Virus record (IMG/VR): IMGVR_UViG_3300045988_142085
Coordinates: 64,001-128,000 of that record
Length of the DNA: 64,000 nt
From: a virus
Strand: one strand, 5' to 3'
Shown here: in pieces, positions 21,027-21,397 of the stretch
Layout of the letters: each line of letters begins with the position of its first letter
Numbering within the stretch: the first letter of the stretch is position 1
Program-made: the position numbers and the translations under genes
The notes under the pieces: generated by a model
What the model saw: the letters and a program-made list of their open reading frames with translations, nothing else
Told to the model about the DNA's origin: nothing
Databases searched by the model: none

Positions 21027-21266
21027 ATTTTTATACTGCATTAAATTCTATAGCTCCAAAACCAAGAGAGCTTTGCAGATTTCTCATTACTTGTTTTAGC
21101 ACTATAATAATACAATTCTGCATCACAAATATTAATTGTTATGATTATTGCAGGATTTTAGTACGTTTTAATATTATAATAAACAATATAACTCTAAAAC
21201 TATTCGATATTCTGCTGTGTAGTCACCTTAATTTTAGTACTGTATCAAACTATACAGCTCTAAAAC
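21027..21266 (-). CRISPR. CRISPR-like mini-array 1: four 36-nt repeats (21231-21266, 21165-21200, 21093-21128 degenerate, 21027-21062) and three spacers (21201-21230, 30 nt; 21129-21164, 36 nt; 21063-21092, 30 nt)
   Basis: Minus-strand repeats: GTTTTAGAGCTGTATAGTTTGATACAGTACTAAAAT, GTTTTAGAGTTATATTGTTTATTATAATATTAAAAC and GTTTTGGAGCTATAGAATTTAATGCAGTATAAAAAT. The 36/30 periodicity and GTTTTAGAGC...AAAAC ends are typical of type II-A. Confidence 0.6.
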
Positions 21267-21397
21267 CTCAAATTTGCAAAATTAGAGCTATATTTAACAG
21301 TACTTTATAGAGTCTTCTAAGTTATCTTAGCAGACTTCTAAAGGGATAAAACTTAAGCCCTATACCGACTAATTAAAAATATGATCGGTTACAATTA
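21267..21397 (-). promoter_or_regulatory. conserved leader of mini-array 1 (~131 nt), containing an anti-repeat (ATATAGCTCTAATTTTGC) that pairs with repeat 1
   Basis: ~80% identical at both ends to the leader of array 2 (23795-23930). Ends ..AAATTTGAGG at the repeat junction. Internal TGCTAA-17 nt-TATAAA promoter-like spacing. Confidence 0.5.

Follow-up and report, generated by a model that had tools for sequence, protein, structure and literature searches.

Two short arrays beside a tnpB-like gene

We analysed a 64,000-nt stretch of viral DNA (positions 64,001 to 128,000 of IMG/VR record IMGVR_UViG_3300045988_142085; hereafter the window), in which two short CRISPR-like arrays lie near a gene for a TnpB-like protein. 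All coordinates are those of the window. The minus strand encodes all of its open reading frames (ORFs), whose Pfam matches are those of a large tailed phage. The initial annotation had described an anti-repeat in the leader of array 1 that folds back on the first repeat. It proposed three roles for this hairpin: a mimic in cis of the trans-activating CRISPR RNA (tracrRNA) for processing by RNase III and Cas9, an autoregulatory element, or a guide scaffold for the TnpB-like protein next to it.

Read along the minus strand, array 1 is preceded by a scaffold (21305..21396), described below as omegaRNA-derived, whose RNA would be expected to begin at about 21396 (AAUUGUAAC). It contains three hairpins, P1 (21389-21384 with 21369-21364), P2 (21361-21358 with 21345-21342) and P3 (21340-21326 with 21321-21308, closed by a GAUAAC loop), and has AUAAA at its end. 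The leader-encoded anti-repeat AGUACUGUUAAAUAUAGCUCUAA follows at 21282..21304 and is complementary to repeat 1, as seen from folds, pair counts and the arms of the sequence. The leader end (21267..21281) forms the loop of the hairpin, with ATTTGAG at 21273-21267 placed directly against the GTTT of repeat 1. This first repeat, GTTTTAGAGCTGTATAGTTTGATACAGTACTAAAAT (36 nt, 21231..21266), is type II-A-like and internally palindromic, with a self-hairpin of -11.8 kcal/mol. Next comes spacer 1, TAAGGTGACTACACAGCAGAATATCGAATA (30 nt, 21201..21230), the presumed guide of the first, covalently complete unit. Repeat 2 (21165..21200) has diverged from the family consensus by 6 differences, and the distal part of the array (21027..21164) is decayed, with 102 nt carrying repeat remnants and then a degenerate terminal repeat at 21062-21027. 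Only 35 nt separate the end of array 1 from the start codon of the tnpB-like gene (19780..20991, minus strand), the presumed effector.

Array 2 (23702..23834, minus strand) sits 2.5 kb from array 1, ahead of unrelated genes, and its scaffold is equally conserved. This second scaffold copy (23828..23929, minus strand) has compensatory changes relative to copy 1. With R1, a covariance model built from the scaffold only (alignment A3), it reaches 107.8 bits, and the array 1 scaffold 115.5 bits. The anti-repeat of array 2 is at 23834-23808, the leader end GATTTGAT at 23802-23795 and repeat 1 at 23794-23759. After these come 17 nt left over from a spacer (23758-23742) and, at 23741-23702, a degenerate repeat.

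As for the 403-aa protein, it matches Pfam OrfB_IS605 (7.6e-22) and Cas12f1-like TNB (1.1e-9), the PADLOC Cas12f profile (4.5e-26), and PDB profiles of Cas12f and TnpB (1e-8 to 1e-5). The window has 92 ORFs that reach 80 aa or more. This protein is the only Cas-like effector match in the set, and none of these ORFs, in a 64-kb window of a genome of about 230 kb, is cas9, cas1, cas2 or csn2. In public assemblies the protein forms more than 120 clusters at 85% identity or above, all of 382-416 aa and mostly on 220-236 kb contigs. The carrier is an abundant jumbo phage of human-associated metagenomes. In all close relatives fetched, the adjacency of tnpB and array is kept.

Structure, strand and ancestry of the scaffold RNA

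The core of the hairpin is formed on the minus strand by ATATAGCTCTAA (21293-21282) and TTAGAGCTGTAT (21263-21252), with 12 pairs, 11 of them Watson-Crick and one G·U. The initial annotation had counted an 11-bp duplex with one G·U around a loop of 16 nt. The pairing is present, but the intervening stretch is 18 nt, and the whole is part of a longer duplex. In the minimum free energy fold, leader positions 21304-21282 pair with nearly all of the 36-nt repeat 1 (21266-21231), in about 23 bp with two small internal loops. The span first reported, 21231-21300, left off the last 4 nt of the anti-repeat as well as the whole scaffold, up to 21396.

In both arrays the minus-strand hairpin is more stable than its shuffles. 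The 80-nt hairpin of array 1 has -22.9 kcal/mol, against -12.2 +/- 2.7 for the shuffles (z -3.9, 1/200). That of array 2 has -20.1 kcal/mol (z -3.0) and one C·A mismatch, in line with the earlier statement that the same pairing is preserved there with one mismatch.

Since the repeat is palindromic, an inverted copy and a decayed direct copy were told apart where the palindrome is imperfect. There, the arms of the repeat are AGAGCT...AGTACT and those of the leader AGTACT...AGCTCT, and the anti-repeat is a true inverted copy. A degenerate direct repeat is ruled out, as the non-palindromic arm positions are inverted.

We then considered conservation in 26 scaffold-anti-repeat-repeat copies, taken from the window and related phage contigs (alignment A1). 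The hairpin is conserved in the homologous phages, with its two anti-repeat:repeat helices 88-90% paired and some compensatory changes. Alignment pair 124-158, for example, is GC in 13 copies, AU in 5 and GU in 4. The scaffold hairpins P1-P3 are 97-100% paired, and 17 of their 26 pairs have changed on both sides. Every shuffle and slide control of this covariation fell far below the observed values.

The same alignment gives the strand. A G·U pair becomes a C·A mismatch on the other strand, and G·U outnumbers A·C in P1 (25:1), P2 (6:0) and P3 (15:4), or 46:5 for the three together, and in the anti-repeat helices (61:27). The functional RNA is therefore the minus strand, which is the tnpB strand. 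On it, the order of scaffold, anti-repeat, loop, repeat and spacer is the polarity of type V and TnpB single guides, as the initial annotation had it. A plus-strand reading as a Cas9 single-guide RNA (sgRNA), in the order spacer, repeat, loop, anti-repeat and hairpins, is ruled out by this asymmetry, by the orientation of the II-A leader end and by the location of all genes on the minus strand. What had made this reading look plausible is the likeness of the plus-strand repeat, GTTTTAGTACT, to the SaCas9 repeat.

The unit is widespread in one group of phages. Searches with nhmmer found 91 scaffold-anti-repeat-repeat copies in 59 loci. Of these, 64 are distinct, 48 of them with repeat 1 at the expected distance. 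The 64 come from related phage contigs of 170-236 kb. Close relatives of the TnpB (83-96% identity) lie on IMG/VR contigs of 166-236 kb. Extra scaffolds in tandem occur at loci L011 (2964-3307, three scaffolds), L087 (2043-2372) and L099 (2086-2415), the extra copies scoring 70-76 bits with R1. At loci L004 and L005 (5785-6000) the core unit is kept without an array, and the position of the spacer leads directly into the ribosome-binding site and start codon of tnpB.

Outside this group little was found. In the scaffold and array region, Rfam at E<=10 gave no family and no tracrRNA, only chance microRNA and internal ribosome entry site matches and weak CRISPR-DR matches. Among INPHARED phages, neither the locus nor a large structural ORF was matched, in DNA or in protein. 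A metagenome scan for divergent scaffold lineages returned significant matches from the same phage family only, and its environmental pattern matches were due to chance.

Beside the array 1 scaffold, on the same strand, lies an ORF-free and GC-richer element of about 366 nt (21400-21765). It ends in a hairpin, GAGCGATCACC...GGTCGCTC, followed by T8 against the scaffold start. More than 40 related loci have it at 70-93% DNA identity, and the 150 nt beside the scaffold are the most widely conserved part. It has no Rfam match and is unlike the 89-93-aa ORF found at the same position in some relatives. It is a candidate structured non-coding RNA.

The origin of the scaffold is indicated by distant tnpB genes on other large phage contigs (L023-L034, 36-41% protein identity). 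R1 matches all ten of them, with 25-38 bits (E 2e-5 to 0.011), always on the coding strand and within the final ~75 to ~85 nt of the gene, stop codon included, which is the omegaRNA position. The best score in 357 kb of unrelated phage and bacterial control sequence was 15.8 bits. It follows that the scaffold and the omegaRNA of this TnpB clade are homologous. The alignments have in common the P1 stem, the P1 loop AUGCUUUUAGC, an A-rich junction, the P2 hairpin GGGnn...nnCCC and the AUAAA after P3.

The distant genes also have 160-240 nt of non-coding sequence 3' of the stop, in which the conserved segment ends ...GCCAAUGAAUC-N-UUUCAUUCGGAAA. Beyond UUUCAUUCGGAAA, copies that are otherwise identical diverge, and this is the classic boundary between omegaRNA scaffold and guide. 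No arrays were found near these homologs. Their target-adjacent motif could not be derived from left-end boundaries, with upstream regions that are not alignable and one pair with a fuzzy common boundary.

The window gene is arranged differently. The 3'-overlapping omegaRNA that extends to the right end of the element and takes its guide from flanking DNA, typical of transposons and present in the distant relatives, is missing. The next ORF begins 3 nt after the stop, and the only trace is a weak R1 relic match at 19761-19858 (20 bits, E 0.17). Judged by its sequence, the scaffold of arrays 1 and 2 is an omegaRNA scaffold that has been relocated. Where the omegaRNA has a terminal stem-loop ahead of the guide, the window family has the anti-repeat:repeat 1 duplex instead, and after it AAAAY and the spacer.

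Type II-A repeats and TTYN-flanked targets

The array has a different pedigree. It combines a 36-nt GTTTTAGAG...AAAAC repeat with spacers of about 30 nt and an ATTTGAG/GTTT junction, which is the leader-repeat junction of Group 1 type II-A systems (PMC5382924). As cited there, Wei et al. 2015 (PMC4330368) reported that the leader's last 10 nt together with repeat 1 are necessary and sufficient for spacer integration. At the array 1 junction the window reads CAAATTTGAG|GTTTTAGAG, matching the cellular ATTTGAG|GTTTTAGAG. In 48 phage copies of the loop, ATTT is near-invariant, and 28 of the 48 are at most one mismatch from ATTTGAG.

Cellular arrays with repeats of this family turned up when one genome per species was scanned by pattern. 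An example is GTTTTAGAGCTGTGTTATTTTGAAGAGTACTAAAAC, with 28-30 of 36 positions identical to the phage repeats. In a metagenome-assembled genome (MAG) of Saccharibacteria, such an array stands after cas9, cas1, cas2 and csn2. The strict repeat pattern found no host. A looser one brought up II-A arrays in MAGs of Saccharibacteria and of Clostridia, all at 28-30 of 36 and none identical. The leader of the Saccharibacteria locus with cas9 (L057) is only about 40 nt long and ends ...GGATTTGAG|GTTTTAGAG, and it folds a full-length hairpin with the first repeat (-28 kcal/mol, z -6.6).

Taken together, repeat, 30-nt spacers, ATTTGAG leader end and leader-repeat hairpin mark the array as one of type II-A origin, to judge from sequence likeness. 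The cellular II-A leader folds the same hairpin, and the anti-repeat therefore came with the II-A leader and was not invented by the phage. The new element is the omegaRNA scaffold fused directly 5' of the II-A-type anti-repeat.

We collected 56 distinct spacers of 28-31 nt from all arrays, and they differ between related phages. At locus L071 (4860-5400), four identical leader-proximal repeats and five 30-nt spacers, three of which match the target phage described next, are followed by progressively degenerate distal repeats. This is a signature of recent acquisition at the leader end. Near this locus and its relatives no cas1 or cas2 was seen.

Across the arrays, 11 independent spacers match one oral phage family of about 32 kb, with 1-5 mismatches. 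Its contigs encode an XkdM-type tail tube, an HNH protein and a terminase, and one spacer matches the start of a putative tape-measure gene. Among loci L041-L052, in the structural module of the target phage, 5 of 6 protospacers are antisense to the genes, so that the CRISPR RNA (crRNA) is complementary to the mRNA, a number too small to judge. Other searches gave no targets: 26 concatenated spacers had no match in INPHARED, the conserved spacer GTTGCCCG... returned only the arrays themselves, and no spacer matches the phage's own locus.

The 11 protospacers carry a common 5' flank. In the sense of the crRNA it is T (9/11), T (8/11), Y (11/11) and N, with 1.09, 0.76 and 1.26 bits at positions -4 to -2, and the sum over these three positions was not reached by any of 5000 random site sets. 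On the 3' side every position has 0.37 bit or less, and the 3' protospacer adjacent motif (PAM) expected for Cas9 was not found in these flanks. A T-rich 5' motif together with a guide 3' of the repeat is TnpB/Cas12 polarity. Cas9 in the canonical II-A orientation would need a 3' PAM.

These data bear on three other accounts of the hairpin. In the first, it is an ordinary leader-repeat hairpin of phage-borne II-A mini-arrays that are read by the Cas9 and tracrRNA of the host, and the neighbouring tnpB is incidental. The leader anti-repeat would then sequester the first repeat, which has no spacer of its own, suppressing extraneous crRNA and giving priority to the newest spacer. Such a mechanism is established for II-A systems (Liao et al. 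2022, Nat Microbiol, as cited in PMC12080349). Features of II-A are seen in the repeat (28-30/36), in the 30-nt spacers and in the ATTTGAG/GTTT leader end (PMC5382924), and the cellular cas9-cas1-cas2-csn2 locus has the same full-length hairpin. However, Cas9 needs a 3' PAM, and here the motif is on the 5' side, with nothing informative in the 3' flank. This account also leaves a scaffold of about 100 nt, strongly selected for its structure, fused to the anti-repeat and homologous to omegaRNA, without explanation; II-A leaders need nothing of the kind, as the short L057 leader illustrates. With no cas9 in the window and no sequenced host found with an identical repeat, we consider this account unlikely.

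The tracrRNA mimic for RNase III and Cas9 proposed initially is not supported. The RNA is structured on the 5' side of the anti-repeat and a Cas9 tracrRNA on the 3' side, and a tracrRNA match in Rfam, a cas9 in the window and a 3' PAM are all missing.

The second account is an RNA decoy or anti-CRISPR (Racr-like), in which repeat and anti-repeat RNAs titrate the tracrRNA, pre-crRNA or Cas9 of the host and so protect the phage. The phage repeats closely resemble cellular II-A repeats, and the anti-repeat could, by analogy, hybridise host repeats as well as its own. Many arrays are short and decayed and yet keep scaffold, anti-repeat and repeat 1. A decoy, however, has no need of an omegaRNA-type scaffold. 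Nor does it fit spacers that are real, 29-31 nt long, variable between relatives and matched to a competitor phage beside a flanking motif, or the identical repeats of some arrays, which give the look of recent expansion at the leader end. We regard a decoy as very unlikely.

Lastly, the RNA could be a cis-regulatory leader, a form of the autoregulatory role raised at the start. TnpB would bind the scaffold or hairpin in the 5' untranslated region of its own mRNA, or target its own promoter, and the spacers would be relics. Guide-RNA-based autoregulation has a precedent in the tracr-L of S. pyogenes. Array 1 leads directly into the tnpB start with no terminator between, and L004 and L005 have only scaffold and repeat 1 ahead of tnpB. 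Against this, the second, equally conserved scaffold and array stand 2.5 kb away before unrelated genes, and the spacers target foreign DNA, none of them the locus of the phage itself. The chance that regulation alone accounts for the locus seems to us very slim.

A probable guide RNA for the TnpB-like protein

In our view the hairpin probably serves as the repeat:anti-repeat stem in a guide RNA used by the TnpB-like nuclease of the phage itself, in a TranC-like, early type V system. Of the initial proposals, the guide scaffold for the adjacent TnpB-like protein is thus the role that the evidence favours, through omegaRNA homology and the 5' TTYN motif. Overall, the earlier interpretation is partly supported.

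The proposed mechanism starts from a minus-strand transcript that probably runs on into the tnpB mRNA and carries scaffold P1-P3, anti-repeat, II-A leader-end loop, repeat 1, spacer 1, repeat 2 and so on. Its first unit would fold like an omegaRNA, with the anti-repeat:repeat 1 duplex in place of the ancestral terminal stem, and would act as a natural covalent single guide with spacer 1 as the guide. TnpB would bind this RNA and recognise TTYN-flanked DNA of the competing ~32 kb phage, and the ribonucleoprotein may cleave that DNA as opposed to merely binding it. For later spacers, a copy of scaffold and anti-repeat would pair in trans with the downstream repeats, and the RNA would presumably be processed. 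The predicted pairing of the anti-repeat with downstream repeats (mean -15.8 kcal/mol) is nearly equal to that with repeat 1 (-17.0 kcal/mol), and the anti-repeat could therefore also serve later spacers in trans as a tracrRNA.

The obvious candidate for the source of spacers is the II-A Cas1-Cas2-Csn2 machinery of the host. If II-A enzymes add the spacers, the TTYN enrichment could come from selection after acquisition or from help by TnpB. A larger claim is that the locus is a cross-type chimera that records how a type V system was born by capturing an array. In this view a TnpB omegaRNA scaffold is fused to a II-A leader anti-repeat, host Cas1-Cas2-Csn2, docking on ATTTGAG and repeat 1, writes the array, and TnpB reads it in the polarity opposite to Cas9. 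In addition, the anti-repeat RNA might hybridise the II-A pre-crRNA of the host, blocking Cas9 maturation or diverting host spacers to TnpB. We put this forward as a tentative idea, possible in its entirety and on balance rather doubtful.

Several observations weigh against a TnpB guide. A leader-repeat hairpin is a normal II-A feature, and the hairpin alone does not demand a role for TnpB. Loci L004 and L005, which keep only scaffold, anti-repeat and repeat 1 before tnpB, also fit a regulatory leader. No convincing sigma-70 site was found upstream of the scaffold, and the terminator-like hairpin with T8 abuts the scaffold of array 1. Array 2 and the distal part of array 1 are decayed in the window, repeats have diverged within most arrays of the window and its relatives, and spacer 1 of the window has no target in IMG/VR or JGI metagenomes. 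Furthermore, the association of TnpB, array and scaffold is found in a single phage lineage, in which synteny alone is weak evidence.

The active site adds a further reservation. The TnpB clade has neither the canonical RuvC-II glutamate nor the zinc-finger cysteines. In array-associated and transposon-type proteins alike, the RuvC-II region reads IIIGHN or LIIGLN, with a 4-residue gap relative to the 'IQMERL' of Cas12f. Nuclease activity is not assured, and the protein might only bind. Residues D193, E327, E328 and D369 are invariant (alignment A4), with D369 in an NADVN motif, and E327/E328 in the invariant EESYTS are candidates to replace the RuvC-II glutamate. Rearranged RuvC sites have been described, viral branches included (PMC10691335).

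Some other features of the window may be mentioned. With PADLOC, the 92 ORFs include a DarG-like macro-domain protein (7.8e-50) and a small protein matching both 'Unk_01, sometimes fused to CARF' (1e-16) and Csx1 (1.5e-9); these genes may be related to counter-defence or signalling. An OTKONC RNA (Rfam RF03053, 170 bits, above the gathering score) lies at 38792-38962 (minus strand), within a 3.8-kb region without ORFs of at least 80 aa (36958-40752), and the papers searched do not mention this family. At 5555-5780 (minus strand) two ORFs are separated by a group I intron (Rfam RF00028, 94 bits), and about 3 kb from it is a LAGLIDADG homing-endonuclease-like ORF (8961-9914).

Compared with known systems, the locus is closest in kind to TnpB-derived effectors with arrays (type V-U, TranC). 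These arose many times. The key step, it has been proposed, was a functional split that made a tracrRNA and a crRNA out of the reRNA (Jin et al., Cell 2025, cited in both PMC13565253 and PMC13639567). CauTranC9, a phage-borne TranC of about 414 aa (clade 9), has a 5' PAM and phage-targeting spacers (bioRxiv 10.64898/2026.03.27.714800). By published description, the likeness covers a TnpB-sized RuvC protein (403 aa here) beside a short array, a guide made of an omegaRNA/reRNA-derived scaffold with anti-repeat and a repeat-spacer crRNA, and a short 5' PAM. It extends to phage carriage, spacers against another phage and the lack of adaptation genes nearby. In contrast to TranC, the window scaffold is still covalently joined to repeat 1, so that the RNA is unsplit at the first unit. 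The array is also recognisably II-A and not of 'unknown subtype', with repeats of 36 nt versus 38 nt in CauTranC9. Its position is upstream of the gene, whereas in nearly all Cas12-array associations the array is downstream (PMC10691335).

With the TnpB-omegaRNA pairs of IS200/IS605 elements (e.g. ISDra2), the locus has in common the Pfam OrfB_IS605 domain, hairpins P1-P3 homologous to the omegaRNA of the nearest transposon-type relatives, a guide 3' of the scaffold and a target motif 5'. It differs in that the RNA is encoded upstream of the gene, the terminal stem is a 23-bp anti-repeat:repeat duplex, and the guides are exchangeable array spacers and not the transposon flank. There is also no sign of mobility, the position of tnpB being fixed in more than 100 related phage genomes.

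The II-A leader hairpin is likewise only partly comparable. A leader anti-repeat, some 10 nt of leader end with ATTTGAG and then the GTTTTAGAG... repeat 1 are found in both. In II-A systems, however, the role of the hairpin is to silence, for Cas9, a repeat that has no spacer, and thereby to suppress extraneous crRNA (Liao et al. 2022, as cited in PMC12080349). Here a guide follows the repeat in TnpB polarity, the leader is extended 5' by the omegaRNA scaffold, and Cas9 would need the protospacer motif on the other side. Cas9 crRNA:tracrRNA pairs and sgRNAs use a repeat:anti-repeat duplex at the GUUUUAGAGCU end of the II-A-type repeat, as does the window. Unlike them, the window has the inverted order, with scaffold 5' and guide 3'. 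Neither a nexus nor 3' hairpins follow its anti-repeat, and it has no cas9 and no tracrRNA match in Rfam.

Among phage-encoded type V effectors, Cas12p, the 'hacker', is a larger protein (bioRxiv 10.1101/2025.01.20.633832). Like the window system, it is a phage-borne compact Cas12-family effector with a small array, presumably directed against rival nucleic acids, and it uses a tracrRNA. Cas-lambda and Cas-phi are likewise phage-encoded miniature type V systems. All three effectors are larger (500-800 aa) and belong to other clades, and the PAM of Cas12p is GTN. We know of no II-A-type array or cis-fused scaffold described for any of them. The class itself is known, and the locus departs from it in three ways: the joining of scaffold and repeat in cis, the upstream array, and a II-A array with integration motif and leader hairpin intact.

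The origin of type V systems from TnpB is still debated. Two routes have been proposed, duplication of an omegaRNA segment or landing of a tnpB beside a pre-existing array (PMC10691335). The second route, array capture, seems to have left a natural snapshot in this locus, in that a recognisable omegaRNA scaffold is covalently attached to repeat 1 and joined to an array with II-A hallmarks, including the leader integration motif. If confirmed, it would offer a directly testable model of how an anti-repeat is acquired, being already present in the II-A leader. It would also provide a compact, naturally single-guide nuclease or DNA binder of 403 aa with a short TTYN PAM. For the phage itself, the locus apparently represents a miniature RNA-guided system of a widespread oral jumbo phage against a rival phage. 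Confirmation would mean that a very abundant member of the oral community uses RNA-guided targeting against its competitors, possibly relying on the adaptation enzymes of its host.

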